In this document: in pieces, positions 13,756 to 41,252 of the stretch | How the letters are laid out: the number at the start of each line of letters is the position of its first letter | Position numbering within the stretch: the first letter of the stretch is position 1 | From: Myxococcales bacterium | GTDB taxonomy: Bacteria > Desulfobacterota > Binatia > HRBIN30 | NCBI GenBank assembly: GCA_037445065.1 | Contig: JBBILD010000007.1 | Location: 64,001-128,000, forward strand | Direction: 5' to 3' | Length of the DNA: 64,000 nt | Program-made: the position numbers and the translations under genes | The notes under the pieces: model-generated | What the model saw: only the letters and a program-made list of their open reading frames with translations | Databases searched by the model: none | What the model was told of the DNA's origin: nothing

Positions 13756-13777
13756 GGCCAGCGCAGGAGGGGCGGGA

Positions 13778-15265: not shown

Positions 15266-15301
15266 TGATGCGCACCCGAACGAACGCGAGCGAGACCTAA
15301 A

Positions 15302-22961: not shown

Positions 22962-24119
22962 TCACGTAAGCTGCGCCAAGGCAGCGCGGACCGCCGGGTG
23001 TACGACTTCTCCATCCCGCACCACCAGCGTTTCGCGCACGATTTCGTCTTGGGCGTCGAACGAAATCTGGCCTTGGCGCATGAGGTGCAAGAAAAAGGTC
23101 GTGAGATTGTTCGAGTACATTTGGCTTGCATGCAGGGGCACGGTGCTCGCCAAGTTCACCGCTCCCACGATGCGCACACCGGCCACCACGATTTCCTCCT
23201 CCGGCTGGGTGAGCGCGCAGTTGCCGCCCCGCTCTGCCGCCAAGTCAACGATCACCGAGTCCGGCTTCATGGAGCGCACCATTTCCTCGGTTACCAGCAC
23301 CGGCGCTTTGCGCCCCGGCACTGCCGCGGTCGTGATCACCACGTCGCTCTCCGCCACTCCGCGCGAGAGCAGTTCGCGCTGTTTCTGGTAAAAGGATTCG
23401 TCTTGTGCCTTGGCGTACCCACCCTTGTCTTCCGCTTCCGCCACCTCGAGCGGCAGCTCCAAGAAACGAGCACCGAGGCTCAGCACCTGCTCTTTGACTG
23501 CCGGCCGAATGTCGTATGCGTACACCACGGCTCCCAGCTTGCGAGCGGTGGCAATCGCCTGCAAACCGGCCACACCCGCACCTAAGACGAGCACGCGCGC
23601 TGGCTGCAGGGTGCCCGCCGCAGTCATCATCATGGGGAAGAGTTTCGGCAAGCGGTCCGCGGCAAGCACCACTGCCTTGTACCCGCTGACGGTCGCCATG
23701 GAGGAAAGGGCGTCCATGCTTTGCGCGCGGGTAATGCGTGGCATCAGTTCGACCGCGAACACGTTCACCCCCGCCTTCGCCAGCCGTGCGATCGCCTCCG
23801 GCGCGCCGAGAGGGCGCTGAAACCCGATCAGCACGCATCCGGGGCGAAGCCGGGGCAGATCATCCGCACCTGTTTTCGGATTCGCCCCCAAGCCCAGCAC
23901 CTGGAAGATCACGTGGGCGCGGGCAAAGACTTCCTCCCGGCTCGGCACAATCTCCGCCCCCTTCTCCGCGTACTGTGCATCCGGAAAGCCCGCCTGCACA
24001 CCCGCTCCGCTTTGCACCACAACCTGGCAGCCGGCTTTTTGCAAAGCCGGGAGCGAGGCGGGCACTAGGGCCACACGCCGCTCCCCAGGGTACGACTCCC
24101 TCGGCACGCCCACAATCAT
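22962..24119 (-). CDS. pntAA: NAD(P) transhydrogenase subunit alpha part 1 (domain I)
   Basis: 'GERRVALVP', 'RITRAQSMDALSSMA', 'GAGVAGLQAIATA', 'VDLAAERGGNC'. Confidence 0.96.
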   Translation of the reverse strand: MIVGVPRESYPGERRVALVPASLPALQKAGCQVVVQSGAGVQAGFPDAQYAEKGAEIVPSREEVFARAHVIFQVLGLGANPKTGADDLPRLRPGCVLIGFQRPLGAPEAIARLAKAGVNVFAVELMPRITRAQSMDALSSMATVSGYKAVVLAADRLPKLFPMMMTAAGTLQPARVLVLGAGVAGLQAIATARKLGAVVYAYDIRPAVKEQVLSLGARFLELPLEVAEAEDKGGYAKAQDESFYQKQRELLSRGVAESDVVITTAAVPGRKAPVLVTEEMVRSMKPDSVIVDLAAERGGNCALTQPEEEIVVAGVRIVGAVNLASTVPLHASQMYSNNLTTFFLHLMRQGQISFDAQDEIVRETLVVRDGEVVHPAVRAALAQLT

Positions 24120-24150
24120 GCGTCTCCTCCTGCCATCGGCCTTGCCCGCC

Positions 24151-24189
24151 GGGTAAACTCGGGAAGTTTACCCAAAGCAAGAGTTTTGT
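24151..24189 (-). promoter_or_regulatory. Candidate pnt promoter overlapped by a perfect 9-5-9 inverted repeat
   Basis: GGGTAAACT-cggga-AGTTTACCC at 24151-24173; minus strand reads GTGACA-N16-TAAACT. Confidence 0.45.
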
Positions 24190-24338
24190 CACCTAGGATT
24201 CGGCCCAATAGACCTTTTCTGCAGTGGCCTGCCACACGTCGGTCTTGGGATTCGTTCCCGCGACCGGCTGGCTGCGCGCGTCTTGCCAGGCGCAGCGCCC
24301 AGCAAGATCCCGAATCGGGCACATGCCAACGGGCGGCA

Positions 24339-25118
24339 CTAGGATCCAGTGGCGTGGTCGTTCCGGGTGGGCTCTGACCAAGCCTTTGGCGGATGCCACT
24401 CTGCCTCTGGCTCCACGCGGCAGGGAACGGCCCACGGCGCCGCAGTGTTTTCCGGCTGCCGTACCTCGGCCGTCGTAACGCCTCCGCGCCGCCCGTCGGT
24501 CACTGAGGCCAAGAGCCGCGCCTTCCGCACCACCGCAGCCATGCACGCCTGCGAGGCGATCCCGTTGCAGTCTACGCCAGAGGGCAACTCCAGCGCAAAC
24601 TCGCCCGTAGCACTGACCTCCTGCCGGTCCGCCAGCGGCAAGCGGCAGCCGGCCACTTCGGAGAAAAGAACCAAGCCGCTTCCGTTCCCGCGGCAGACCA
24701 AGCGGATCGCCCCTCCCGACGGGCAGGCCGCCTCGGCTTGTTGGGCAAAAAACGCCCGCAACGCCGCACTGGCAAGCGCAAGAAACAACGGCGGAGGCGC
24801 GCCATCGGTGCTCCGCGGCTGGGCCGGCTCTTCCACCACCCGAAGCAGCCCTGGCCACGCGGGCGGCTGGAGGACCAAAGCGGTTTCACCCGGAACGCGT
24901 GCAGCCCAAAACAAGCCGACGACGGTCACCGCGCGCAGCATTGCCCGTGATTGTCTTCTAAACCGCATGAGCAGCGGCCGGTAACAGGAGCACAAGGGTT
25001 TTGCCATGCGTTCCTCTTGCGCAGCGAAGAGGATGCCAACTCTTTCGCTCATTGCCGGCTCGTGTCCCGCACGGGTTTCGGTGGCATCGCCTGTGTCGGC
25101 CCCTGACACCGGTGCCAC
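24339..25118 (-). CDS. Hypothetical Cys-containing protein (possibly degenerate or exported)
   Basis: Fills the gap between the MBL gene and pntAA on the same strand; no recognisable motif; start uncertain. Confidence 0.3.
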   Translation of the reverse strand: MAPVSGADTGDATETRAGHEPAMSERVGILFAAQEERMAKPLCSCYRPLLMRFRRQSRAMLRAVTVVGLFWAARVPGETALVLQPPAWPGLLRVVEEPAQPRSTDGAPPPLFLALASAALRAFFAQQAEAACPSGGAIRLVCRGNGSGLVLFSEVAGCRLPLADRQEVSATGEFALELPSGVDCNGIASQACMAAVVRKARLLASVTDGRRGGVTTAEVRQPENTAAPWAVPCRVEPEAEWHPPKAWSEPTRNDHATGS

Positions 25119-25158
25119 AATGCGCGCGCTCGAGCCTCTCCCCGAGTCCCGCGGTGCG

Positions 25159-26028
25159 TCACGCCAAGTCTACCTTCAAGCCTCGCGAGGCCAGGTCGGT
25201 CGCCGTGAACACGCGACGCGCTTGGCGTACTAGCTCGACCAAGGCGCGATCGTCGTGCGACGGGTCGTGGTGAAACAGGAGCAACCTCTCGACACCGGCA
25301 GCCCGCGCCACCTCGGCGGCAATGCGGACCGTGCTGTGGCCCCATCCGACTTTGCCCTTGCGCGCGGCAGCGTACTCTTCGTCGGTATACTGGGCGTCGT
25401 GTACCAGAACCGCAGCTCCCTGCGCGAAGCGCACGACGTCTTCAAACCCCTTCCCCACCGCCTCGATGTCGGTCGCGTACACCAGGGCACGGCCCGCGCA
25501 CTCGACCCGGTATAGAGCCACGCCCAGCTTCGGGTGTGCGCCGCTGATCTGCACCCTGACCCGCGCTGGCGGCCGCCCAGCGAAGCGAAGCACCGCGTGC
25601 CTCGCCAGTGAACGAATCTGTGGGCGGGCGGGCAGCTCCGGCCATTCGACCGGGAAAAAAGCCGGCGACATAGCCATGCGCAGCACGCGTTCGGGTAGAA
25701 ACCCGTGCAGCTTCGGGCCATGGATCCGACAGCGCCAGCCGCGCTCGTACAGAGGCGCGAAAAAGCGCAGACCGTCAATGTGATCGTGGTGGTAGTGACT
25801 CAGGAACACCTCCACCCGGCGATTTCCAGGTTCGCGGAGTAACGCTTGGCCGAGGCCAATTAGGCCCGTCCCCGCATCGAACACCAGCAGGCGGCCTCCG
25901 GCGCGCACTTCCACGCACACCGAGTTGCCACCAACCCGTACCGTGCTCGGCCCTGGCGTGGGATGGCTCCCGCGTACGCCCCAGAAGCGCACCCAGAACC
26001 GCCCCTCGTCCGTTCCCTCCCCGAGCAT
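25159..26028 (-). CDS. MBL-fold metallo-hydrolase (phosphodiesterase-like)
   Basis: 'VRFWGVRGSHPTPG', 'DAGTG', 'SHYHHDHIDG', 'YATDIE', 'WGHS', 'FHHDP'. Confidence 0.9.
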   Translation of the reverse strand: MLGEGTDEGRFWVRFWGVRGSHPTPGPSTVRVGGNSVCVEVRAGGRLLVFDAGTGLIGLGQALLREPGNRRVEVFLSHYHHDHIDGLRFFAPLYERGWRCRIHGPKLHGFLPERVLRMAMSPAFFPVEWPELPARPQIRSLARHAVLRFAGRPPARVRVQISGAHPKLGVALYRVECAGRALVYATDIEAVGKGFEDVVRFAQGAAVLVHDAQYTDEEYAAARKGKVGWGHSTVRIAAEVARAAGVERLLLFHHDPSHDDRALVELVRQARRVFTATDLASRGLKVDLA

Positions 26029-26211
26029 GTGACCTTTCCACCGCCTACCAGCCCGCCTGAAGCAAAGCAACGAGAAGTTCGCGGGGGGGAAACCCGAGCC
26101 CCGGCGCTGAGCCCGTGGCCAGGGAGCAGAAGGCCCGCCACCAGGGGTCACGCTCCGGGCAGAGCACAGGCACCAGCGGCCGCAGCCACTGCAGGCAACG
26201 AACCAGCGGCG

Positions 26212-26859
26212 CTATTCCGGAGCCATCACCGCGCCCAGCGCTCGCACTACGGTGTCCACGAAGCCTCGGATTTCGGCTTCCTGGCGCCCCGAGAGCTGCA
26301 TCTGCACGACCATATGTGCACCGCTGATCATGAGCCGCGCGCCGAGTACCGGGTCGAGCCCCCGGTTGAGCGTACCCTCGCGCTGGCCGCGGGCAATCGT
26401 GCCGGCAATGATCGCCTCCACTTGGTCTTGAAACGCCAAGTAAAGAGGCCACTCCCGATCCCGGATCGAGGTGCTCCAGTGCAGCCAAACGCGCGCGTAA
26501 GCCGGATGGGTGCGCACTGAGTCGGCGAAGGCACGCGCGTGTGCCAACAAGACGGCATCTGCTGGCTCTTGCACTCGCTCGTGAACTTGGGCCGCCTGAT
26601 CCCGATAAAAGCGACTCACTTCTCTCAACACTGCCTCGACCAAGCTCCGCCGGCTGGGGAAGTACACAAAGGTCGTTGCCAGCGAGACTCCGGCACGACG
26701 AGCAATCTCCGCGTGCCTGGCTTCACCAATTCCCCTTTGGGCGAACACTTCGAGAGCACACTCGAGGAGCTGTGCGCGGCGCCGCTCCGGCGCCAATCGC
26801 GAGGCCCGCCGCCTGCGCTCCGAAGCTCGCTTCCCTGCCTGCCGACCCCCACGCGGCAT
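26212..26859 (-). CDS. TetR/AcrR family transcriptional regulator
   Basis: 'LLECALEVFAQRG...EIARRAGVSLATTFVYFPSR' HTH; AGGAG RBS. Confidence 0.92.
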   Translation of the reverse strand: MPRGGRQAGKRASERRRRASRLAPERRRAQLLECALEVFAQRGIGEARHAEIARRAGVSLATTFVYFPSRRSLVEAVLREVSRFYRDQAAQVHERVQEPADAVLLAHARAFADSVRTHPAYARVWLHWSTSIRDREWPLYLAFQDQVEAIIAGTIARGQREGTLNRGLDPVLGARLMISGAHMVVQMQLSGRQEAEIRGFVDTVVRALGAVMAPE

Positions 26860-27396
26860 AACCGCTCCTTACTACCAGAACCGCGTCGCACCAAGAGACT
26901 GCCACGCACCGGCCTTTCGGCGGCCACCCCGGCGCCGGCTTTCCGCTCTCATTTTTGGGGCGGGGCTGTGTTGGGATGCCCTTGCCGTGGGAATGCTGAC
27001 CCGAGTCTGCCCATTTTCAACGGCAGGTACGCACCGGAACGATCCCTCCCGTCGCCCAAACCAAAGCTGTAGGCTCGCAGCGTTCCTCCGCCTCAGAAGC
27101 CACACCCGCAGCGTGCACCTGTGTCGCAACGGTCACCGGACTCGGCGTCTATGGGAGCTGTGGCGCCACCTTCCGGCCCTGCAGCGTGCGCACATGTCAC
27201 TGAAGTCTCGTCGGGGCGGCTCGACCCGCTTGCCCTGCGGTACTCAGTCCGAACCCCTCCGCCGTCTGCCGCTCGGACCGGGCAGCGGTGATGGGGGCTG
27301 CGAAAAACCGCGGGACCCGCGCTCCGGCTCATGTCGAGGGCGTTCTGTTCCGGTGCAGATCCCGCTCGGAACCCCGGGGCTGGCGGCGAGGTGGCT

Positions 27397-27432
27397 GTCC
27401 ACGGAACCAGTCCACGGAACCACACGGAACCA
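27397..27432. repeat. Short tandem repeat (GTC)CACGGAACCA x3
   Basis: GTCCACGGAACCA 27397-27409, GTCCACGGAACCA 27410-27422, CACGGAACCA 27423-27432. Confidence 0.75.
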
Positions 27433-27996
27433 CCGCGGCACGCAAGGAAACGGGCCTGCCTGCGCAGTGCAGCATTGCCGCAGAGACGCCGTGCTCGCTC
27501 CTCTCTGAACGGACCGCTGGCCCTTCGCCACCCGCCGCTCACGGCTCGCAGCCACGAGGGGCACCGTCACCCATCTCGGAGGCGCGCCGCCGTACCGGTC
27601 GTGGTCGGTCATCTCGGAACGGCCCGTTCCCCATGCGCAATTCACCGTTTCTTGCTCATCGCTGGTTGCGGCATCCGCATGAGCCTGCGGAACGACCGTT
27701 CACCCTCACTAGTGGCCGTTCGCTTAGGGCTGCATTGACTCGATATGTGCGCTTGCGGTACGCGCTGCCAGCGGTGAGACGAGCATCACGGCAGCCGACG
27801 CTCCGCGCACGCAGCCGCGTGCCGCGTTTCGCTCGACGCCGACACAGCGGTGACCGTAGCCCGTCGGACAATGACCTCGACCCGACAAGGAGCCGTTTCC
27901 GGCGCATGCCGCGCCGCCCGCATGGCTGCGTTCTCTCGCGAACGCGCGGCCGCTAAGTACACGCACCATCAAGAAGATTCCTAGGAGGTTTTCACC

Positions 27997-28638
27997 GTGG
28001 AAGGGTTGAGCGTACTCGACTTGATCCAGCAGGGCTGGATCGCAACATACCCGTTGCTGCTTTTCTCCGTGGCAACCGTGACCATTATCCTCGAGCGCGC
28101 CTGGTCGTTGCGCGGGCTGATCCCCAGCACGTTGAGCTTGGCGGAACAAGTGCGGGCACCGCTCGAACAAGGCAACTTCCGGGCTGCCCTAGAAGCCGCG
28201 CAAGCTGCCAATGGAACCCCGGCCGGCCGTATCTTCACCGACGTCATTACCCGGCATCAGTCCGACTCTCTGGAGTATCTTTCCGATTTGACGGAGGACA
28301 AGCGCTTCGAAGAAATCGAGGCGCTCAAGGGTCCGCTGTGGGTACTGGGGACGGTCAGCAGCTCCGCGCCGTTCATCGGCCTGTTCGGCACCGTGATCGG
28401 CATCATCAAAGCGTTTCACAACATGGCGGTGATGGGAAGCGGTGGCTTTTCTGTGGTGGCTGCGGGCATTTCCGAAGCTCTGGTGGCCACGGCTCTCGGG
28501 CTCGGCGTCGCCATCCTGGCGCTGATTTTCTACAACTATTTTCAGACCCAAATCGAGCGCATCGAGGCGGCGCTCACCATCGCCTGCAACCGGGTGCTCG
28601 ATGCCATCCATCTGGGGAGGCAGAACCATGGCGTTTAA
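27997..28638 (+). CDS. MotA/TolQ/ExbB proton channel protein
   Basis: 'LGTVSSSAPFIGLFGTVIGIIKAF', 'GISEALVATALGLGVAI'; AGGAGG RBS. Confidence 0.95.
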   Translation: MEGLSVLDLIQQGWIATYPLLLFSVATVTIILERAWSLRGLIPSTLSLAEQVRAPLEQGNFRAALEAAQAANGTPAGRIFTDVITRHQSDSLEYLSDLTEDKRFEEIEALKGPLWVLGTVSSSAPFIGLFGTVIGIIKAFHNMAVMGSGGFSVVAAGISEALVATALGLGVAILALIFYNYFQTQIERIEAALTIACNRVLDAIHLGRQNHGV

Positions 28639-29047
28639 TGCCCGTCACCGGGGCCATAAAGGCATCGTCTCGGAAATCAACATCACACCCCTGACCGACA
28701 TCTTCCTCGTGCTGCTGATCATCTTCATGGTAACCAGCGCCGCGATGGTGGAGTCCGGCGCGAAAATCAGTCTCCCTGAGGTGGATTCCACGGCCGCGCA
28801 ACCGCGCGAAATCACCATCACGGTGACCCCGCAAAACGACGTGTACGTCAACGCCCAACTCACCCCCTATGAACAGTTGGAAGACACCTTGCGGCAACTC
28901 ATTCAGAATCGCCCGGACGTACCGGTGGTGCTGGAGGGGGACCGCGAGGTTTTGTTCGGACAGGCGGTAAAAATCCTCGCACTGGCGCAAAAGGCGGGCG
29001 CCTCGCAAATCGCGATTGCCGCTCAGCCGCGGCGCGCAGCTCCCTGA
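28628..29047 (+). CDS. ExbD/TolR family protein
   Basis: 'EINITPLTDIFLVLLIIFMV' with the conserved Asp; periplasmic 'LEGDREVLFG'. Confidence 0.95.
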   Translation: MAFNARHRGHKGIVSEINITPLTDIFLVLLIIFMVTSAAMVESGAKISLPEVDSTAAQPREITITVTPQNDVYVNAQLTPYEQLEDTLRQLIQNRPDVPVVLEGDREVLFGQAVKILALAQKAGASQIAIAAQPRRAAP

Positions 29048-29049
29048 GT

Positions 29050-30192
29050 ATGAGCGCAGCTCCGCCTCCGACGTCTCGCTCCAACTTCGATCCTTGGGCG
29101 CCGCGCCCCCGCGCTACGGCACGCTGGGTGGTGGTCTCGGGGCTGGTGCACGCCGCACTACTGCTGCTGTTCGCAACCGTGACCCTGACCGTGATCCAGA
29201 AAATCGAGGAGATTCGGGTCAAGGTGCAGGAAGAGGCGATCCCAGGCCCGGAAAATTTGGAGGGGGCAGATTCCCTGCGCGACGTGGCCGGCGCCCTGCG
29301 GCCGGAACAAGCCTTGCCCAAACGAGCCCAAGCGAGCGGGCCCGCGCCGCAAGGCATCCGCGCCCCCGAGCTTCCCGCCATCGGTGGTTTCGGACCGAAG
29401 CTCGGCGGGCCGGTCCTCGATATTCACACTCCAATTTCCTTTGGCGCGGGCGGCGCTGGGGTCGGCGGACTGGGCGGTTCATTCGGTGAATACGTGGGCG
29501 GGCTGCGGCGCGTCGGCCTCGACGTGGCCTTGGTGATCGATACCACCGACAGCATGCAGTTCGTCATTGACGAAGTGCGCTCGCGCCTCAAAGCGTTCGT
29601 CGCCGCGCTGCAACGGATGGTGCCCACTACCCGCGTTGGCATCGTGGTCTATCGGGACAAAGGCGACGACTACGTGGTGAAGTGGACCGACCTCAGCTTC
29701 AACACCCAAAAGCTGCTGGATTTCTTGGCCAACATCCGAGCGGGCGGCGGGGGCGACTGGGAAGAGGCGGTCAAAGACGCACTCGATACAGCAGTGCACG
29801 AACTCAACTGGCGCAAGAAATCTAAAAAGGTCCTGATTATCGTCGGCGATGCACCACCACACCCGTGGGAACTCGACGAGGTCAGGGGAATCGTGCGCGA
29901 GTTTCGCCAGCAAGGCGGCTTCGTGAGTGCGATTGACGTCACCATTCCGGCGCACGAAATCTTCGACCGCCATATGTGGCGCTCTCTCCACGGCAGCAAA
30001 CCGTACCAGCCCTCTCCACTGCCGGACTTCTACCACGAAGTGAGCCGCACTTATGGGGAGATCGCCAAACTAGGCGGTGGCGAACTGGTACAGCTCCGCG
30101 AGAACAAGGCACTCATGCGCAGCATTCTCGAACTGACCTTTGGCAGTCGCTGGAAAACGGAGATGCAAAAGTACCTGAAGGAGTTGACCTAA
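29050..30192 (+). CDS. Membrane-anchored vWA-domain protein with TonB/TolA-like SxxxH anchor
   Basis: TM 'VVVSGLVHAALLLLFATV', Pro/Gly-rich linker, vWA with MIDAS-like 'IDTTDSM', 'VVYRD', 'GGGDWEE', 'IVGDAPPH'. Confidence 0.85.
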   Translation: MSAAPPPTSRSNFDPWAPRPRATARWVVVSGLVHAALLLLFATVTLTVIQKIEEIRVKVQEEAIPGPENLEGADSLRDVAGALRPEQALPKRAQASGPAPQGIRAPELPAIGGFGPKLGGPVLDIHTPISFGAGGAGVGGLGGSFGEYVGGLRRVGLDVALVIDTTDSMQFVIDEVRSRLKAFVAALQRMVPTTRVGIVVYRDKGDDYVVKWTDLSFNTQKLLDFLANIRAGGGGDWEEAVKDALDTAVHELNWRKKSKKVLIIVGDAPPHPWELDEVRGIVREFRQQGGFVSAIDVTIPAHEIFDRHMWRSLHGSKPYQPSPLPDFYHEVSRTYGEIAKLGGGELVQLRENKALMRSILELTFGSRWKTEMQKYLKELT

Positions 30193-30193
30193 C

Positions 30194-32533
30194 GTGGGGC
30201 GAAACGTCTGGCTGCTCGCCCTGCTGGCATTGCTGGCCAGCGCGGTGGCAGGCGCGCAATCCGTGGCCGACATCGTGGCCCGCGCCCGGCAGGTGAAGCA
30301 AAGCTGGTCCGGGGGCCAACCACCGAGCGACGAAGCAGCCCTGCGCCAATCCATCGCCCGGTTAGGAGAGGCGGCCTTGCAGTTCATCGCCCTCAGTGAT
30401 CGCTTCGAGCAGCAAGGGGGAGGGAAGGAAGGGGAAGCTTTGCTGGAAGCATACCGCGCGCTGAGCCAACCGCTCGAAGCCATTTACGAGGCGACAGGCG
30501 GCAAGCTCGAGCGCATGGTGCAAAAGGTCATCGCGGAAGACGGCGACTTGGAAGCTCTCTACGAATCCCCGGAGTACCGCAGAGCCGGCACCCTCGGAGC
30601 GCAAGCACTCTACTATCTGAATTGGGTCCGTTTTTACGGCGCGCGCCGGATGGAAGGCGCCCAACGCAAGATTCTCTTGGAGAAAGCAATGCAGGGTTTC
30701 GGCGAGTTTGCCGGCAGCGACAACGCGGAACTCCGACGCGAGAGCTTGCTCGGCCGCGGCCTCTGCGCCCTCGAACTGGGCGACTTGGACGCCGCCACCC
30801 AGGATCTCCTCGCAGTGGCCGACGACCCGCAAAATCCTGCCGAACGCCGATCCAAGGCGCGCCTGGCCTTGCTCGATGCGTACGTGCGGCATGGTCGGTA
30901 TCGGGAAGCGGTCCAGCTTTCTGCCGCCTTGATGGGTACCGCTGGGGCGGATGCGCGGGTGCGCTTTTTGCACGCCCGCGCCTTGTTGGAACTGGCGCGC
31001 AAAGCCAGCGCCGAAGAAGCAGAACGGTTGCGCAAGGACGCGGTGGCTGCGCTCGAACCGCTGCAGCGTGGCGGCGGGGTGTGGGCCGAACGCGCACAAG
31101 GACTCCTCCTGTCGTTTGCGGACGATCCGGCGCGGCTCGCCAAAATGGTCGAAGGTCCCCGGGCGCGCATCGAGCTGGCCAAAATGCTGCTGCAGAAAAA
31201 GGACTACCGGCAGGCCATCTCCGTGCTCGAAGAGGCGGGGAGGTCCGGGTCTCTTTCCCCCGCACTCGAAGCAGAGCGCCGTTACGTGCTGGGTTTGGCC
31301 CAGTTCCAAAGCGGCCTGTGGCGCGAAGCGGCGGAGAACCTGAGGCTAGCCGCACAGGAGAAGACCGGCGAGGACGCGGCGGAGGCAGCCTACCTCCACT
31401 TCAAGGCTTGGGAGCGGATGGCTGCCGACCAACGGGAACAAGCGGACTTGGCTGCCTACGAGCGAGCCATCCGAGCGTACGTCGAGCGCTTTCCCCAGCA
31501 CCGCTTTGCCTACGAGGGCTTTTTCCGGCTGGGCGAGCTGCTCCAGCAGCGCAAACAGTGCAAGGAGGCGCTGGAAGCATTCGCGCGTGTGAGCGGCGAT
31601 GCGGAGTTTCATGTCCGTGCTCGCTTCGGAGCGCTTCAATGCCGAGTGACCTTGCTCGCCGAGTCGGGTAGCCCCTCTGCACAAACGCTGGCGGAACTCG
31701 GCAGTGAACTTGCGATACTGACCCGGGCCCTCGAAGATCTCAAGCACCGCCAGCGCAACGAGCCCGTGGTGCTGAGCGGTCTCGAAGCGAAACTCACCCT
31801 CCTTCGCGCCGCGTGGCAAAGCTGGCAGGCGGAGCCAGACTGGCAGCAAATCGCCTCCGCGCTCGAAAACTTCGAGCAGCGCTATGCGCAGCAAAGCGAG
31901 CTGTTTGCGGCTGTCAACCGCTTGCGCTTACTCGCCTACTTGCGCCTCGGCCGCTTCCGCGACGCCGAGGCCGTGGCCGAGCGCTGGGCGTCGGAACTGG
32001 TGCGGGAGTTCGGCGCGCAGCAAAGCGAACAACTCGCTGCCGCCTTTGTGCGGGCCGGCACCCAGCGCAAGAACCAAGGCGAGGCCGGTGCCGACCTCGC
32101 CGCCCAACGCGTCGCGTTGCGCCTCTACGAAGCCCTAGCTGCTGCTGACTCGAACAAGCCCAAGTTCCGCCTGACTCTGGCGCGTTTATACGAGAACACC
32201 GGCGACCTGGTTCGCGCGCGCGCGCTGTACGAAGAGGTTCTCACTCAGGACCCCAACCTGCTCGCTGCGCTGCGCGCCCTGGCCGGAATGGCTGAAGCCA
32301 AGGGTGATCTCGAAGCCGCTCGCCAGTACTGGGAGCGTTACGCACGCGCCGCACGCCCGGGCGACGCGCCGTGGTACGAAGGGGAATACCAGCTCGCCCG
32401 CTTACAAAACACAGCCGGCGACCGCGGGGCCGCCTGCGCCCGCCTAGAAAAACTCAAGCCTGCCATGCCTGGGCTCAGTGACGTACAACTCCGCCAGCAA
32501 CTGGATCAGCTTTACCGGCAAGCTTGCCGCTAA
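30194..32533 (+). CDS. Exported tetratricopeptide-repeat (TPR) protein
   Basis: Signal peptide 'VWLLALLALLASAVAGA'; repeated Ala/Leu-rich helix pairs ('YVLGLAQFQSG', 'FRLGELL', 'LARLYENTGDLVRARALYEEVL'); starts 1 bp after the vWA stop. Confidence 0.82.
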   Translation: MGRNVWLLALLALLASAVAGAQSVADIVARARQVKQSWSGGQPPSDEAALRQSIARLGEAALQFIALSDRFEQQGGGKEGEALLEAYRALSQPLEAIYEATGGKLERMVQKVIAEDGDLEALYESPEYRRAGTLGAQALYYLNWVRFYGARRMEGAQRKILLEKAMQGFGEFAGSDNAELRRESLLGRGLCALELGDLDAATQDLLAVADDPQNPAERRSKARLALLDAYVRHGRYREAVQLSAALMGTAGADARVRFLHARALLELARKASAEEAERLRKDAVAALEPLQRGGGVWAERAQGLLLSFADDPARLAKMVEGPRARIELAKMLLQKKDYRQAISVLEEAGRSGSLSPALEAERRYVLGLAQFQSGLWREAAENLRLAAQEKTGEDAAEAAYLHFKAWERMAADQREQADLAAYERAIRAYVERFPQHRFAYEGFFRLGELLQQRKQCKEALEAFARVSGDAEFHVRARFGALQCRVTLLAESGSPSAQTLAELGSELAILTRALEDLKHRQRNEPVVLSGLEAKLTLLRAAWQSWQAEPDWQQIASALENFEQRYAQQSELFAAVNRLRLLAYLRLGRFRDAEAVAERWASELVREFGAQQSEQLAAAFVRAGTQRKNQGEAGADLAAQRVALRLYEALAAADSNKPKFRLTLARLYENTGDLVRARALYEEVLTQDPNLLAALRALAGMAEAKGDLEAARQYWERYARAARPGDAPWYEGEYQLARLQNTAGDRGAACARLEKLKPAMPGLSDVQLRQQLDQLYRQACR

Positions 32534-32538
32534 CCGCA

Positions 32539-32575
32539 ATCGAAGGCTTCAATCGGCGGAATGGCAATTTTGAAT
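32539..32575 (+). promoter_or_regulatory. OxyR-type binding site upstream of ahpC
   Basis: ATCG-N7-CAAT-N7-ATGG-N7-GAAT has the exact spacing of ATAG-N7-CTAT-N7-ATAG-N7-CTAT. Confidence 0.6.
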
Positions 32576-32641
32576 TGGCCTCCGCCACCGCTGCCGCCTA
32601 ATTCGAGCAGCAACATTCTCAGATTTCAGGAGGTAGATCGT

Positions 32642-33181
32642 ATGCTGACCGTTGGTGATCGCTTTCCCTCGTTTCGGCTCAAAGCAGTCGTCAGTCGCGA
32701 GCCGGGCCGTGAATTTCAAGAACTCAGCGATGCGGATTTCGCCGGCAAGTGGCTGGTCGTGTTCTTCTGGCCCATGGACTTCACCTTCGTGTGCCCTACC
32801 GAGATCGCGGAATTCGGCCACCGCGAAGCGGAGTTCCGGGCTCGCAATGCGCAAGTGCTCGGTGCGTCCACCGACACCCACTACGTCCACCTCGCCTGGC
32901 GCAACCAGCACCCGGAACTGCGCGACCTGCCCTTCCCGATGCTGGCCGACACCAAGCGCGAACTCTCGGCCGCTCTCGGCATTCTGCACCCGCAAGAAGG
33001 CGTGGCGCTGCGCGCCACCTTCGTGGTCGACCCAGAGCGCGTCATCCGCTTCGTGAGCGTGAATGACCTGTCCACGGGGCGGAACGTGGATGAGGTCCTG
33101 CGCGTGCTCGCCGCATTGCAGACCGACGAACTGACTCCGTGCAATTGGAAGCCCGGGGAGCCCACCCTGCGAGCGGCTTGA
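32642..33181 (+). CDS. ahpC: Peroxiredoxin AhpC
   Basis: 'WPMDFTFVCPTEI' peroxidatic motif, 'GRNVDEVLRVL', 'DELTPCNW'; AGGAGG RBS. Confidence 0.93.
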   Translation: MLTVGDRFPSFRLKAVVSREPGREFQELSDADFAGKWLVVFFWPMDFTFVCPTEIAEFGHREAEFRARNAQVLGASTDTHYVHLAWRNQHPELRDLPFPMLADTKRELSAALGILHPQEGVALRATFVVDPERVIRFVSVNDLSTGRNVDEVLRVLAALQTDELTPCNWKPGEPTLRAA

Positions 33182-33199
33182 GGCTCGTTTCACATCCGC

Positions 33200-33238
33200 C
33201 AGCGGGAGCCGACTTTCCCCCGGCTCCCGCTGTCTTCC
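33200..33238 (+). terminator. Probable terminator after ahpC
   Basis: 12-bp perfect stem CAGCGGGAGCCG/CGGCTCCCGCTG with 9-nt loop; weak pyrimidine tail. Confidence 0.55.
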
Positions 33239-33307
33239 AAGCAGAAATCCACGCCTTCCGATTGATGCGCGCCGTTCGGTTGTTACTCTGCGCGCCGGAG
33301 GTGCGGC

Positions 33308-34036
33308 ATGAAAGAGACCCTTTCCCAACCAACCACAGCCCCCCGGCAGTGGCACCGGCGGCAAGTGTTGCAAGCGGGTAGCGCGCTGGCAGTGACCCTT
33401 TTGGTTCGCCGGCTCGGCGCGGAAGCGGCTGGACCAATTTCTCTCCCGCCCCTTCCGTGGCCGGAGAAGGCCCTCGAGCCGGTAATTTCCGCGCGGACGA
33501 TTTCCTTTCACTACGGCAAGCACCACCGGGCTTACGTGGACAACACCAACAAGCTCGTCGCCGGTACGGAGTACGCCGACCTGCCGCTCGAGGAGATCGT
33601 GCGGCGCAGCGCCACGCAACCTGGCAAAGGGGCTTTGTTCAACAACGCTGCCCAAGTGTGGAACCACACGTTTTACTGGCACAGCTTGCGGCCCAAGGGG
33701 AGCGGCAAGCCGAGCGGGAAAATCCGCGAGTGGATTGACCGCGATTTTGGCGGCTTCGAGTCGTTTCGCGAAAAGTTTGCGGCGGCCGCCACCGGCCAAT
33801 TCGGCAGTGGCTGGGCGTGGCTCGTGGCAGCCGACAAACGCCTCGAGATCGTAGCCACGGGCAACGCCGACACCCCACTTACAGCAGCCGGGAAAACCCC
33901 GCTACTGACCATTGATGTGTGGGAGCACGCCTATTACCTCGACTACCAAAACCGCCGCGCCGATTACGTCCACGCGGTGATCGACCGACTCCTCAACTGG
34001 GAGTTTGCCGAGCAAAACTTGGCCAAAGCGGGGTGA
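33308..34036 (+). CDS. sodB: Fe-type superoxide dismutase with putative twin-arginine signal
   Basis: 'HYGKHH', '[10 protein letters not shown]', 'QFGSGWAW', 'DVWEHAYY'; N-terminal '[17 protein letters not shown]...AEA'. Confidence 0.92.
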
Positions 34037-34043
34037 GACTGGG

Positions 34044-35546
34044 TCAGCGCGTGGCGCTGCGCCAGCGGGCCTCGACTCGTTTCACGCGATCACCACGGCG
34101 CACCACCCAGGCGACCGTGTCGGGTTGCGGGAACTCGGGGCCCCACAGGACGGTGTCGAACGAATACACGCTGTCACCATCCACAACCGCAACGACCTTT
34201 TGCTTGTGACGGGCCTCCCAGGCCAAGTGCCGGCCGTCGGGTGAAAAACGCGGCCGCCAAGCTTCATCGTAGGCAAGGGGAAACGCTAGCCCGTCCATCA
34301 AGTAACTCCACTTGCCGCGCGGCTCTCGCGCAGCGGCGAACGCTACGCGTTCGCCGGCCGGATCGAACGCAACGCCCCAAACACTGTAAAATGGACCCCA
34401 GCGTTTCCCATCGACAACGAAATCCGCCGGTACGTCGGGACTCACCGGCAGCCCGCGGTAACAAGGGTAGGCCAGGTGCTGCCCGTCATCGGACAACATC
34501 GGCGGCATAAATTCCCAGTAGTGCTCGCAGATCGTGTTCTCGGGCTTGCCGTCTCGGTTCAGCCGCCACTTCGACTCCTCGCCCGGAACCTTTTCCCACC
34601 ACGCCACCACCGGTGCGGAATCGGCTCCGTTCAGCGAATTCACCAGGATGGTGGGCGAGGTACGGAATTGATCGAAGCCAAATGACACTTGCCCGCCGAG
34701 GCTCAGCACGTGCGAGAACGACGCCAGTCGGGTATCGTTCCGATACAGGGCCCAGCCATCCCGATCGTAAGCGAGCGTAACCAGACTCCCGTCTGTGAGA
34801 TAAAGAAGCTTGAACTGGCCGAGCCCCGGCGCCCGCTCGCTCATGCGCAGCGGCGGTGAGGCTTTGTCAGTGGGCGGCCGTTCGAAGACACGCCGCTCCT
34901 TCCCGTTGACAACGAGCACATGCGAGCCGTCCGCGCGCTCAGCGACAAACGCGACCTCCTGGCCATCGGATCGGATCGCCGGTACGGAGACATCCTCGTA
35001 CACACCGAGCAGCTCTCCGTTCGAGTACACAGCAGCCTTGCCCGCGCTGCCCGGCCCTGCCACCTCGCGCGCGAAATTGCCGGCCGTCGCCCAACGGGTG
35101 CCGTTGCGGCTGATGACGAACGGATTGGGTTGTCGAAAACCCGTGCGGGTTTCCTGCCCATTGTCCACCAAAAGCAGATCCTCTTCGCCCAGCTTACGGT
35201 CGATCGCCCAGTACAAGCGCCGTTGCGTTTCGCGCAGCAATACCGGATGAGAGACTTCCTCGTACTCGCGATCTGCGCCGGCGCTGTGGACCACGCGTTC
35301 CCCTGCTGTGGTGCGCTCCACGTATGCGTACGTCACTCCGTCCGACCCGATCGCCAACGTCTGCCGCCGCGCTGTCTCCGGCAAGCGCACCAGCGTGCGC
35401 GCAGAAACTTCGACTCTCCGCGGCGGCACCTCCGCTTGCCGCTGGCATGCAGCAAGGCAAACGAGCGCGAGTGCCCCGCACCAGCTTGCGGTTAGCGTGC
35501 GGCCAAAGCGGGAGCGCCACCGGCGCCCTGCGGCATCGCCGATCAT
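34044..35546 (-). CDS. Hypothetical lipoprotein with beta-propeller-like (PD40/TolB-like) repeats
   Basis: Lipobox 'CLAAC'; repeats 'RSDGQEVAFVA', 'SDDGQHLAY', 'FSPDGRHLAW'; ATG 35546 overlaps the upstream stop. Confidence 0.7.
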   Translation of the reverse strand: MIGDAAGRRWRSRFGRTLTASWCGALALVCLAACQRQAEVPPRRVEVSARTLVRLPETARRQTLAIGSDGVTYAYVERTTAGERVVHSAGADREYEEVSHPVLLRETQRRLYWAIDRKLGEEDLLLVDNGQETRTGFRQPNPFVISRNGTRWATAGNFAREVAGPGSAGKAAVYSNGELLGVYEDVSVPAIRSDGQEVAFVAERADGSHVLVVNGKERRVFERPPTDKASPPLRMSERAPGLGQFKLLYLTDGSLVTLAYDRDGWALYRNDTRLASFSHVLSLGGQVSFGFDQFRTSPTILVNSLNGADSAPVVAWWEKVPGEESKWRLNRDGKPENTICEHYWEFMPPMLSDDGQHLAYPCYRGLPVSPDVPADFVVDGKRWGPFYSVWGVAFDPAGERVAFAAAREPRGKWSYLMDGLAFPLAYDEAWRPRFSPDGRHLAWEARHKQKVVAVVDGDSVYSFDTVLWGPEFPQPDTVAWVVRRGDRVKRVEARWRSATR

Positions 35547-36040
35547 TCCGGCGTGTAGCGGATGACCACGCGGCTGCCGTCCGCAAAGCCTTGCCGGAAC
35601 CGCTGCTCGTGCTGGCTCCACCGATCCGGATACTTCTTGGCGAACACCTCGAGGATCCGCTGCTCCGCTTCTTTGCTTTTCACGATCTCCCCGCGGGCAA
35701 ACAACACCGGCCCGTCCGGTTTGCCGACGGCGATACGCGCCCGCGGTCTTCCCCACCGGATACGCTTGGCGCGCCAGGAACTGGCTGGGGTACCCAAGTA
35801 CACGGCCCCATCATGAAACAGAAACCAGATTTCTGCAGCTCGGCTCCAACTTCCGTCCTTGCGCTGGCTCGATATGTACACGTATTTGGCTTGTTCCAAC
35901 GCGTCGCGAACCTCCGGTGAGAGTTCCGCTCGGCTTCCCTGCGGCCACCACAACAAGCTCCCCGCTGCCAAGATCAACATGCGGATCGCCAGCCTGCGAA
36001 CTCGCTCCGCCCTACTTGCAGCGGACTTTCTGCTGCTCAT
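35543..36040 (-). CDS. Split-barrel (PNPOx/F420-FMN-binding-like) protein with signal peptide
   Basis: 'YISSQRKDGS...EIWFL..DGAVYLGT...SWRAKRI...PRARIAVG...KKY'; hydrophobic N-terminus. Confidence 0.65.
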   Translation of the reverse strand: MSSRKSAASRAERVRRLAIRMLILAAGSLLWWPQGSRAELSPEVRDALEQAKYVYISSQRKDGSWSRAAEIWFLFHDGAVYLGTPASSWRAKRIRWGRPRARIAVGKPDGPVLFARGEIVKSKEAEQRILEVFAKKYPDRWSQHEQRFRQGFADGSRVVIRYTPE

Positions 36041-36900
36041 GCGCCCTCCCCTCCGGAAGAGTTGCTTGCACTCGCCCAGCGCTCACGCGCAAGCCTCTCC
36101 CGATACGCGCGGCTGAGCGGCAGCACGTTCACCGTGCCAGTGATGTCGTTGAGGTCAATGTACACCTCTGTGCGGTACACCTCGGTAATGGCACGGTAGG
36201 TGAGCACGTCGCCCGGTGGTCCAGCGCAATACACGGCGCCCTCGTCCAGAAGCACCACCCGGTCGCAATACTGCGCAGCGAGGTTCAAGTCGTGCAACAC
36301 CGTGAGCACGCTTTTGCCCTCGCCCAGCAGCTCTCGTAACAGGTCGTACATCTCGACCACGTGTCGCAGGTCGAGAAACGCTGCCGGTTCGTCCAACAGT
36401 AGTATGGGAGTGTCTTGAGCAAGCGCTCTGGCCAGCATCACCCGCTGGCGTTCGCCCCCACTCAGCTCCTGGATGGTGCGGTGCGCGAGGTGTGCCACAC
36501 CCGTCCGCTCCATCGCCGCTCGGGCACGAGCCAGGTCTTCGGCATCCTCGAAGGAAAACCCGGCGAGGTACGGCGAACGGCCCATCAGAACCACTTCCAA
36601 CACAGAGAACGGGAACTCCACGTGGGTGTCCTGCGGAACGACAGCGATCGAACGGGCAATCTCGCGCGGCGAAAGTTCGTGTAGGCAGCGGCCGTATAGC
36701 AGCACCTCGCCCGCCCGGGGCCGCACCACGCCGCTCAGGACGCGGAGCAAGGTAGATTTGCCGGACCCGTTCGGACCGATGAGACCGACGAGCTCGCCCG
36801 CACCCAGCGCAAGGGATACGCCTCGCAATACGAGTTGGGATGGCCGGTATCCGAACTCGATTTCCCGAGCCTCGAGCGGGAAGCGCTGAGCTACGAGCAT
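36037..36900 (-). CDS. Cobalamin/iron-chelate ABC transporter ATPase (BtuD/FhuC/HmuV-like)
   Basis: Walker A GPNGSGKST, 'VLMGRSPY', LSGGERQRV, 'LLLDEP', 'VLHDLNLAAQYCD'. Confidence 0.93.
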   Translation of the reverse strand: MLVAQRFPLEAREIEFGYRPSQLVLRGVSLALGAGELVGLIGPNGSGKSTLLRVLSGVVRPRAGEVLLYGRCLHELSPREIARSIAVVPQDTHVEFPFSVLEVVLMGRSPYLAGFSFEDAEDLARARAAMERTGVAHLAHRTIQELSGGERQRVMLARALAQDTPILLLDEPAAFLDLRHVVEMYDLLRELLGEGKSVLTVLHDLNLAAQYCDRVVLLDEGAVYCAGPPGDVLTYRAITEVYRTEVYIDLNDITGTVNVLPLSRAYRERLARERWASASNSSGGEGA

Positions 36901-36913
36901 CGTGCCACTTTTT

Positions 36914-36957
36914 AAAAGCAAAAGCGGCGGCAGGCCAGGGTTAGCCGCCGCCGCTTT
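36914..36957 (-). terminator. Intrinsic terminator between the barrel gene and the ABC ATPase
   Basis: 11-bp stem AAAGCGGCGGC/GCCGCCGCTTT (36921-36931/36947-36957) followed on the minus strand by TGCTTTT. Confidence 0.6.
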
Positions 36958-36984
36958 CGGCGCGAGTTTGTCCCTGCGCGCCAG

Positions 36985-37884
36985 TTACGGGCGGAGTAAG
37001 AAGCTGATCGAGCCGCCGATACCCCAATCCGCCGTCTCGTCCGTGATCCCGAAACTCCCCGTCGGCCGCAACACGATTTCGTAACCGTTTTGCGGAAGGC
37101 GGACGTCAATCCCAGGTTGCCAGGCCAATACGTCAGGGTTGTCCCCAACGGTGTGGACAGTTCCGCCATTGATTTCCGAACGGAACCCGACTTGATCGGT
37201 CCAGCGATAGTAAATGCCTCCCCCGTACACCGTGACTTCCCGCGAACTCGAAGTGTGCGAGGCCACGAACGTGTATCCCCCGTGGGCACGAACCTCGAAC
37301 GGCCCGTAGTGCAGCCCAACCATTCCATACGGAGTGAAGTTGAACTTGCCGGTTCCAGGTTGCAGCGCATTCATGGGCAATACCGACAGGGCCTTCACGT
37401 TGCCCGGCAACAAGGTGGTCTCGGCAGTGGTGAGCCCTCCTTCGGTGGATCCGGTCGGGAATCCCACTGTCACACCCGCACCCGCATCGAAATACTCGCT
37501 GCGCAACGGCACCGCTTTCACAAAAGCGCGCAGATCACCGGGGCCTTCTCCGCCCGCGGTTCGGACGTTCCCGCCAACCCTTTGCTCCACTTCGAGATGC
37601 CGCCAGAACGGGAAGATCAAGCCGGCCTCGAGCAGGTCCATCCCGTAACTCAAGCGCAGCCCACCCGTGTCCGCAGAGGTGGTCGTCTTATTCCCAAGGT
37701 TGTCCTTGACCACATCCTGCGCAAACGTGGCCAGGGGCTCGATCCAAAAGCCTTCGGTGACCGCGGTGTCTGCCTCGAAGCGATCCAGGCTCCGCGTCGG
37801 CGGCGCTTTCTCCTGACTCCACGCCGGGAAAGCGCTCAGTACCAACCCGAGGCAACTCGCAACCACTAGCCCTCGTCGCAGCAT
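36985..37884 (-). CDS. Predicted outer-membrane beta-barrel protein
   Basis: Signal peptide ending 'AFPAWS'; alternating beta-strands; terminal 'DWGIGGSISFLLRP'; strong RBS AAAGGAGGAGG. Confidence 0.65.
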   Translation of the reverse strand: MLRRGLVVASCLGLVLSAFPAWSQEKAPPTRSLDRFEADTAVTEGFWIEPLATFAQDVVKDNLGNKTTTSADTGGLRLSYGMDLLEAGLIFPFWRHLEVEQRVGGNVRTAGGEGPGDLRAFVKAVPLRSEYFDAGAGVTVGFPTGSTEGGLTTAETTLLPGNVKALSVLPMNALQPGTGKFNFTPYGMVGLHYGPFEVRAHGGYTFVASHTSSSREVTVYGGGIYYRWTDQVGFRSEINGGTVHTVGDNPDVLAWQPGIDVRLPQNGYEIVLRPTGSFGITDETADWGIGGSISFLLRP

Positions 37885-38031
37885 AACTCCTCCTCCTTTC
37901 TCCACCCGACCACGCTACTGATGTGGCAAGCTGCCTCCCTGTTCCACAACCGCAACCTCACTGTCAAGCAACACAGCCTCTCCCCGAGCACGCAGCCGGC
38001 ACCCCTGGTTGGTCAGCAGGGCGCTGCCCGT

Positions 38032-39084: not shown

Positions 39085-39091
39085 CCACGCC

Positions 39092-41235: not shown

Positions 41236-41252
41236 CAGTCCTCCGCGTTTCC

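Follow-up and report, generated by a model that had tools for sequence, protein, structure and literature searches.

A motor-linked vWA protein locus in Candidatus Binatia that resembles the published vWA force transducers

The transducers of the Ton and Tol systems carry a transmembrane (TM) helix with the SHLS motif (Ser-3X-His-6X-Leu-3X-Ser), whose Ser and His touch the first TM helix (TM1) of ExbB or TolQ at the motor rim (PMC12905483, accessible text), and TonB and TolA bind their partners by β-strand addition through their C-terminal domains (PMC12204202, PMC12905483, accessible text of both). A further class, the "vWA force transducers", has already been published (Mol Biol Evol 2025;42:msaf138, PMC12204202): according to the accessible text of that paper, its members join an SHLS-motif TM helix, by way of a disordered linker that contains a motor box, to a C-terminal von Willebrand factor A (vWA) domain, adjoin tolQ-like, tolR-like and tetratricopeptide repeat (TPR) genes, and occur in Proteobacteria, Planctomycetes, Verrucomicrobia, Bacteroidetes and Rhodothermaeota, and an AlphaFold 3 (AF3) model places the conserved His at the motor edge. 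Here we describe a four-gene locus at 27997–32533 on the + strand of a 64,000-nucleotide window of Candidatus Binatia DNA (assembly GCA_037445065.1, contig JBBILD010000007.1, positions 64,001–128,000), encoding an ExbB-like protein, an ExbD-like protein, a vWA protein of 380 aa and an exported TPR protein of 779 aa. By its architecture and gene neighbourhood, this locus is a further vWA force transducer, which we set beside the Tichowtungia prototype by description. It is probably a self-contained module for proton-driven force transduction; the transduction itself, the ligand and the physiological role we infer.

As in the class described in PMC12204202, as far as its text is accessible, an SHLS-type helix with a conserved His is followed by a disordered linker and a C-terminal vWA domain, and the neighbours are ExbB/TolQ-like, ExbD/TolR-like and TPR genes. 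The published order in the Planctomycetes–Verrucomicrobia–Chlamydiae (PVC) group is TPR, tolQ-like, two tolR-like and vWA, whereas here it is exbB, one exbD, vWA and TPR, and the prototype locus of Tichowtungia aerotolerans, as described in that text, holds two transducers where the window locus holds one. What the locus adds to the class is therefore a single ExbD, a downstream TPR gene and a phylum unnamed in PMC12204202, not a new kind of system. Binatia, Desulfobacterota and Myxococcota are not named in the accessible main text of that paper, nor is Binatia in its accessible supplement text, although its sequence sets (SS1, SI 3) may list such members. No paper came up in a literature search combining Binatia with ExbB, and the accessible text of the 2026 review (PMC12905483) contains no occurrence of vWA. 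The first-pass annotation of this DNA had proposed a distinct machine rather than classical Ton or Tol-Pal; the distinction is supported, there being no TonB_C or TolA domain and no linked tolB, pal or receptor gene, but the idea is not new, since PMC12204202 precedes it.

The locus shares with Ton (TonB-ExbB-ExbD) a motor with the essential Asp and Thr, a Ser-3X-His N-terminal helix, a Pro/Gly-rich linker and a transducer gene placed third in the operon; unlike Ton, it has neither TonB_C nor a linked TonB-dependent receptor, and bears a vWA domain with a metal-site motif instead. With Tol-Pal it shares its best NCBIfam motor matches (TolQ and TolR, both sub-threshold), a periplasmic TPR protein in the transducer operon and a weak YbgF match, but it lacks TolA domain III, TolB and Pal, and its TPR protein is a long solenoid of 779 aa that falls under the YbgF cut-off. 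The Agl-Glt gliding machinery of Myxococcus xanthus, to which the locus had been likened from the start, is likewise an envelope-spanning system that unites a TolQR-type motor with TPR proteins and a vWA protein (PMC9946355, PMC11761067, accessible text), and that combination is indeed common to both. The analogy is otherwise loose: the Agl-Glt vWA adhesin CglB is an outer-membrane lipoprotein (PMC9946355, accessible text), whereas the window protein begins with a cytoplasmic stub and a TM helix rather than a leader and Cys, and would be anchored in the inner membrane by a motor-binding helix. Pfam neighbourhood scans also found four conserved genes only, and no large Glt-like set.

Gene order and linkage to the motor

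Four + strand open reading frames (ORFs) fill 27997–32533. The first (27997–28638) encodes a 213-aa ExbB/TolQ-like proton-channel subunit and the second (28628–29047) a 139-aa ExbD/TolR-like subunit; the third (29050–30192) encodes the 380-aa force-transducer candidate, with matches to Pfam VWA, VWA_2 and VWA_4, and the fourth (30194–32533) the 779-aa exported, all-α TPR solenoid, which matches several Pfam TPR families. The exbD start was placed at the ATG at 28628, in agreement with orthologues. Read directly from the sequence, this ATG overlaps the exbB end (TAA, 28636–28638) by 11 bp, a 2-bp gap separates the exbD TGA (29047) from the vWA ATG (29050), and a 1-bp gap separates the vWA TAA (30192) from the GTG of the TPR gene (30194); AGGAGG-type sites lie upstream of exbB, exbD and the TPR gene. 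The tight coupling of four genes reported by the first-pass annotation is thus exact to the base pair.

To place the locus among its relatives, we scanned one genome per species, obtaining at least 600 pattern matches and at least 538 confirmed relatives, the best 80 of which were kept as loci. Annotation by tblastn with the four window proteins, by Pfam, and by ExbB and ExbD hidden Markov models (HMMs) over all six frames of the 80 loci gave the same answer throughout: among these best 80 of at least 538 relatives, ExbB and ExbD occur in 20 loci, which are exactly the 20 closest vWA relatives (L001–L020), and the six-frame HMMs find them in none of the 60 more distant ones. All 20 of the closest loci hold these genes as a group and none of the 60 more distant vWA loci does, a co-occurrence that exceeds chance; the four-gene arrangement in 27997–32533 is confirmed as real.

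Co-conservation of the set, a point on which the first-pass annotation had staked its proposal, takes the form of two gene orders: exbB-exbD-vWA-TPR in 12 of the 20 loci and vWA-exbB-exbD(-exbD)-TPR in the other 8. The window and 15 loci have a single ExbD and 5 loci have two ExbD genes, and a TPR homologue is present in 18 of the 20, the remaining two (L003 and L017) stopping at a contig edge. The record titles of the 20 read Candidatus Binatia, Thermodesulfobacteriota/Desulfurellales, "Deltaproteobacteria" and Polyangiaceae/Myxococcales, with two labelled Limnocylindria and Acidimicrobiia. Individual loci depart from the pattern in their details. About 400 bp of extra sequence (L006:7297-7720) separate the vWA and TPR genes of L006, which abut in the other loci of the same order, and no canonical start codon was found before the leader of its TPR gene. 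In L013 (4572-5699) and L015 (4431-6451), the permuted cluster vWA-exbB-exbD-TPR is immediately preceded on its own strand by a gene for a LytS-type histidine kinase; L015 also has a LytTR response regulator gene, placed between those for the kinase and the vWA protein, and in L013 only the kinase ORF was scanned.

The next tier comprises 16 loci, mostly of Planctomycetota, whose proteins are 26–36% identical to ours over the vWA part, and neither Pfam (49 of 101 same-strand ORFs) nor the six-frame ExbB and ExbD HMMs found motor genes near them. Two Planctomycetota proteins of this kind (L022:6215-8401 and L033:6188-8011) place a cytoplasmic FHA domain ahead of an S-x3-H helix and a vWA domain, with no ExbB or ExbD in 7-kb flanks. 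At a Mariniblastus metagenome-assembled genome (MAG) locus (L034:166-2951), an unrelated TPR gene runs 4 bp into the start of an A-x3-H vWA homologue; the contig ends just upstream, and a motor gene may lie beyond its edge. Verrucomicrobiota clusters are among the nearest Atlas clusters, and these, with the Planctomycetota relatives that carry S/A-x3-H helices, are indirect evidence for homology to the Tichowtungia prototype.

The motor subunits themselves match Pfam MotA_ExbB (1.7e-30) and Pfam ExbD (1.8e-29). Essential residues of E. coli ExbBD are Asp25, Thr148 and Thr181 (2026 review, PMC12905483, accessible text). In the window ExbB, the G-T of the "LFGTVIG" helix is invariant among 20 orthologues, and both the Thr of "ALVATALG" and Ser24 in TM1 are nearly so, while the TM Asp of ExbD ("TPLTD") is kept in 23 of 23 ExbD-like sequences aligned from the window and L001–L020. 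On this sequence evidence, the pair is an ExbBD/TolQR-type motor that retains the residues essential for proton flow in ExbBD and TolQR. The best NCBIfam matches are TolQ for ExbB (105 bits against a 221-bit cut-off) and TolR, sub-threshold, for ExbD; since the window subunits score far under the cut-offs of all the TolQ, TolR, ExbB and ExbD equivalogs, the motor is assigned to neither the Ton nor the Tol curated family.

The vWA protein and its TPR partner candidate

An AlphaFold2 (AF2) model of the vWA protein, built from 30 sequences (mean predicted local distance difference test score (pLDDT) 70.7, predicted template-modelling score (pTM) 0.57), gives a short cytoplasmic N-terminus, a single TM helix, a disordered linker and a vWA domain. 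A long helix is modelled at residues 20–63, with pLDDT 75–91 over 21–50, and within it the TM helix (29119–29199, +) carries the SHLS-like motif S30-x3-H34-x6-F41-x3-T45, identified in the alignment of 30 sequences. Here "SGLVH" spans S30 to H34 (S30 codon 29137–29139, H34 codon 29149–29151), so that the single N-terminal TM segment with S-x3-H first noticed in this gene lies inside the modelled helix. Compared with the published SHLS spacing, helices of the window type have Phe or Leu for the Leu and Thr for the final Ser.

S-x3-H is invariant among homologues and frequent in the family at large. The close alignment (A1) consists of the window protein and 29 of 120 listed homologues, 56–77% identical and picked down the list, from a total of 628 homologues at E<=1e-3; in all 30 of its sequences S30, H34 and L38 are invariant, and T43 and T45 are at least 90% conserved. 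All 8 proteins from the more distant, permuted motor-linked operons have S-x3-H in the helix, and across 21 anchors ranging from Binatia to Planctomycetota the S and the H are the sole invariant columns. A profile search of 1.84 billion cluster representatives returned 11,770 proteins at E<=1e-3, 5,155 at 1e-10 and 360 at 1e-30. We passed the top 150 representatives through a crude hydropathy scan, which found a TM helix N-terminal to the first D-x-[ST]-x-S in 116: S-x3-H lies in or beside the helix in 97 of these, by a loose pattern test in which at least one (P0253) matches outside the hydrophobic core, A/G/T/C-x3-H in 6, and 13, which look like signal peptides, are without His. The other 34 lack a TM helix or an N-terminus and are mostly fragments. 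Conservation of S-x3-H among vWA homologues, to which the first-pass annotation had tied its reading, thus extends from the close relatives to the distant motor-linked operons and most TM-bearing representatives. Ahead of the helix, the cytoplasmic D14-P15-W16 is invariant within the Binatia clade, and "PW" followed after a few residues by S-x3-H is common among the longer family members. In E. coli TonB, Pro-Trp likewise stands just before its S-x3-H.

After the TM helix, residues 52–62 ("IEEIRVKVQEE", IRVKV being 55–59; 29203–29235, +) form what we tentatively regard, from conservation, as a candidate motor box. V57 is invariant in the 30 vWA sequences, most of the 21 aligned anchors show an alternating hydrophobic pattern at this position, and the position corresponds to the "stator box" placed at about residues 55–60 of the Tichowtungia proteins in the accessible PMC12204202 supplement. 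The linker proper (residues 60–155; 29227–29514, +) is, as had been proposed, rich in Gly (22%) and Pro (11%), and it is modelled as disordered, with pLDDT below 50 for residues 61–98 and 100–154. It nonetheless keeps 14 positions invariant among the 30 sequences (L83, P98, P109, P116, K117, G119, G143, F145, G146, Y148 and G150–R153); their invariance in a disordered segment suggests that the linker binds something.

The vWA domain with its C-terminal helices (residues 157–379; 29518–30186, +) is modelled at pLDDT of about 85–94, and Pfam VWA matches residues 158–297 (1.6e-11). In a Foldseek search of the PDB, the top match is BatB of Bacteroides thetaiotaomicron (3ibs_A, E 2.7e-10, target-normalised template-modelling score (TMt) 0.70), followed by 4jdu, an aerotolerance-related membrane protein of B. 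fragilis, and then by integrin I domains and anthrax-toxin-receptor vWA domains. A motif like the metal-ion-dependent adhesion site (MIDAS), D164-T-T-D-S168 (D164-x-T166-x-S168), lies at 29539–29553 and is joined by D236 and D267. In an HMM alignment to the collagen VI vWA domain, D164, T166 and S168 correspond to D-x-S-x-S, D236 to the Thr of GGT and D267 to the Asp of TDG; D164, S168 and D236 are invariant across the vWA alignment, but D267 is mostly Gly there. We therefore call the putative metal site MIDAS-like and not canonical, a reading drawn from alignment. No TonB_C or TolA family was among the Pfam and NCBIfam matches at E<=0.1 for the four proteins; that a vWA domain with a MIDAS-like motif replaces TonB_C or TolA domain III at 29050–30192, as suggested earlier, agrees with Pfam, the AF2 fold and Foldseek alike.

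The fourth gene encodes, as expected, a 779-aa exported TPR protein: a hydrophobic leader ending in A-G-A was read by eye at about 30194–30256, leaders are also present in 16 of 16 TPR orthologues read, and the remainder is modelled with a mean pLDDT of 92.3 as about 38 helices and no strands. Its homologues (150 at E<=1e-10) are in many cases named "TolA-binding protein" by JGI, and residues 410–468 give a weak YbgF/CpoB-type NCBIfam match (39.9 bits against a 90.1-bit cut-off). Fold neighbours were set aside, being generic long solenoids only (Ctr9, Ski3, IFT-A; TM-scores 0.2–0.3); the sole bacterial periplasmic TPR fold match, the Campylobacter flagellar-motor scaffold chain 9hmf_K, was too weak to use (rank 12, query-normalised score (TMq) 0.21). 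An acidic motif, D116-G117-D118-L-E-A121 (30539–30556, +), stands out by conservation, with D116, G117, D118 and A121 invariant in 17 locus orthologues and in 59 sequences. We speculate that its D-G-D could serve as a MIDAS ligand.

To ask whether the two proteins might pair, as the first-pass annotation had suggested modelling, we predicted the complex of TPR residues 24–690 with vWA residues 52–380. The score was 0.48 (runs 0.42, 0.49 and 0.48), against 0.08 for the best of three controls; the runs share at least 46% of contacts, with partner pLDDT of at least 71. Of 157 solved complexes, 116 reach the mark used for such predictions, as do 2 of 215 mismatched pairs; at a score of 0.60 or less it is reached by 18 of those 157 plus both passing mismatches. 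These counts apply here only approximately, as our own alignments were fed to the vWA-TPR prediction. The modelling lends weak support to a predicted vWA-TPR pairing.

Flanking genes and the rest of the window

Pfam scans of flanks covered 45 of 87 flanking ORFs from 17 loci and 40 of 69 same-strand ORFs of L012–L019. In these ORFs no recurrent partner was found, and the flanks differ from locus to locus: a divergent cation diffusion facilitator (CDF) transporter occurs in L005, L007 and L008, and amino-acid permeases occur in L010, L011 and L020. No tolB, pal, TonB-dependent receptor or OmpA-type gene was found by Pfam in the window operon or in the flanks of the 17 related loci, in line with the operon's earlier description as lacking tolB, pal and receptor genes, and Pfam found no TonB, TolA or Pal gene elsewhere in the window. 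An uptake cluster does lie on the – strand at 36037–43331, with genes for an ABC ATPase, a β-barrel outer-membrane protein, a FecCD permease, an EF-hand protein and, at 41253–43331, a TonB-dependent receptor (Plug and barrel). The receptor implies a canonical TonB somewhere in the genome, outside the window.

Downstream of the TPR gene on the + strand (32561–34036), a peroxiredoxin gene (AhpC/TSA, 32561–33181) begins 27 bp past the TPR stop and is followed by an Fe/Mn superoxide dismutase (SOD) gene, whose product has an N-terminus that by eye resembles a twin-arginine export leader. We rejected an oxidative-stress link as part of the module, AhpC and SOD being common only to L001, the closest locus. 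At 34044–35756 (–) lies a gene for a 570-aa protein with a weak PD40 (β-propeller repeat) match, kept at 62% identity in L001. Upstream, about 1.1 kb without a convincing ORF (26860–27996) separates exbB from a divergent TetR gene; in L001, about 0.5 kb lies between the match to an upstream metallo-β-lactamase (MBL)-fold gene and the exbB match, and no TetR homologue was found there. Rfam gave no matches at E<=0.1 in 24000–35000, and no sigma-70-like sites were found in 26800–34200. Farther away, at 13745–18490 (+), an ImpB/MucB-family (IMS) gene followed immediately by a DNA polymerase III alpha gene of the second-copy type (PHP, finger, HHH, OB) looks like an imuB-dnaE2 damage-inducible mutagenesis cassette.

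Proposed mechanism and alternatives

In the mechanism we propose, an ExbB pentamer and an ExbD dimer would form the inner-membrane stator, and the vWA-protein helix would dock on the ExbB rim, with S30 and H34 making the contact in the manner of TonB and TolA. The stretch at about residues 55–59 would engage the periplasmic domain of ExbD, and proton flow would pull or reel in the linker and so load the vWA domain, whose MIDAS-like metal site would hold an acidic partner residue. As that partner we favour the TPR protein encoded in the operon, which might be held by way of its invariant D-G-D motif; in another version, the TPR protein may be a CpoB-like accessory on the conserved linker, with the vWA domain gripping an unlinked envelope target. 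The output could be outer-membrane tethering or homeostasis, adhesion or surface movement.

Several observations weigh against this mechanism. An anchor-only profile (A4) has no match in the PDB at E<=10, so that sequence does not show the anchor to be homologous to TonB or TolA, a homology that rests on motif and topology. In the model, the helix runs on through residues 52–63 with declining confidence, and no strand forms there. Apart from the window protein, 27 of 29 A1 sequences have Gly in place of D267, and Asp236 occupies the place of the usual MIDAS Thr, making canonical metal-dependent ligand binding uncertain; the vWA-TPR prediction is weak and came without a reported interface. Among the 16 Planctomycetota-type relatives, 8 have S-x3-H and 6 have A-x3-H with no motor gene in their flanks; either their motors are encoded elsewhere or the motif serves some other purpose. 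Motor-linked loci also occur in MAGs labelled Limnocylindria (L015, DATMAZ010000160.1) and Acidimicrobiia (L017, DATFXK010000276.1). Limnocylindria (Chloroflexota) and Acidimicrobiia (Actinomycetota) are usually counted as monoderm. Correct labels would make an outer-membrane target unlikely in those carriers; the two loci may reflect mis-binning (L017 is a 2.4-kb contig) or hint at a target other than the outer membrane. Finally, PMC12204202 assigns no function to the class and states that no deletion phenotype is on record.

The first alternative starts from the fold. Membrane-anchored vWA proteins of the Bat type occur with TPR proteins, and Bat operons carry genes for a MoxR-type AAA+ ATPase and DUF58. 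The window vWA and TPR proteins might form such a BatA/BatB-like complex that does no mechanical work, with the adjacent ExbB-ExbD energising a canonical TonB or TolA elsewhere and the adjacency reflecting co-regulation. This would fit the closest solved folds, both from Bacteroides Bat-type proteins (3ibs_A and 4jdu), the vWA-TPR pairing in Bat operons, the peroxiredoxin and superoxide dismutase genes after the TPR gene, and the TonB implied by the receptor at 41253–43331. However, a helix needed only for its hydrophobicity would not call for the invariant S30 and H34, the motor genes stay attached through permutation of the gene order and through one- and two-ExbD forms, Pfam scans of the window and related loci found no MoxR-type ATPase or DUF58, and the stress genes are shared with L001 only. 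To our knowledge, Bat proteins neither bear an SHLS helix nor adjoin ExbBD. We consider this explanation unlikely.

A role in trans-envelope signalling, in which the motor-coupled vWA protein would sense a periplasmic or surface ligand or be gated from the cytoplasm rather than do sustained work at the outer membrane, is quite improbable as a replacement, although signalling and force transduction are not mutually exclusive. It would account for the LytS-type kinase genes upstream of the clusters in L013 and L015, the LytTR regulator gene in L015, the cytoplasmic FHA domains of L022 and L033 and the invariant D14-P15-W16 of the Binatia clade; yet two-component genes occur in only 2 of 20 loci, no kinase is linked at the window locus, and the sole neighbouring regulator gene there is the divergent TetR gene that L001 lacks.

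That the locus is a divergent but ordinary Ton or Tol system, its vWA domain merely replacing the C-terminal domain while still serving TonB-dependent receptors or a Tol-Pal function, is very unlikely: the topology, motif and motor type are the same, the best motor matches are TolQ and TolR, and the "TolA-binding protein" names and YbgF-like stretch of the TPR protein point that way, but every motor equivalog score is far under its cut-off, no TonB_C, TolA, tolB, pal or linked receptor was found in the window or the related loci scanned, and the vWA fold offers a metal-site interface different from the β-strand addition described for TonB and TolA in the accessible text of PMC12204202 and PMC12905483. 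Anti-phage defence, by Zorya-type or other systems with MotAB-like motors, was rejected, PADLOC giving no matches for ExbB, ExbD or the vWA protein and one chance-level match (E 0.0041) for the TPR protein.

Returning to the force-transducing module, a bolder version would make it a third self-sufficient proton-driven envelope machine beside Ton and Tol, in which ExbBD loads an integrin-like metal-site domain that grips an obligate TPR partner through its D-G-D motif, the resulting force-regulated bond, akin to the catch bond of integrins, tethering or remodelling the envelope without a TonB-box receptor. We offer this version tentatively and regard it as possible but doubtful.

Within the class, the locus contributes a compact form with one ExbD, drawn from a phylum that is uncultured, a natural linkage control (motor genes in 20 of 20 closest and 0 of 60 more distant loci, among the best 80 of at least 538 relatives) and a set of invariant residues (S30, H34, V57, the linker residues, D164, S168 and D236 of the vWA protein, and D116 and D118 of the TPR protein). 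The class is large: at E<=1e-30 it has 360 cluster representatives, and S-x3-H is carried by at least 97 of the top 150. Ton and Tol are the two textbook routes that carry inner-membrane energy to the Gram-negative envelope, and a third type of transducer with an adhesion-type domain would widen this picture; vWA transducers may explain how the envelope is energised in lineages without a recognisable TonB or TolA.

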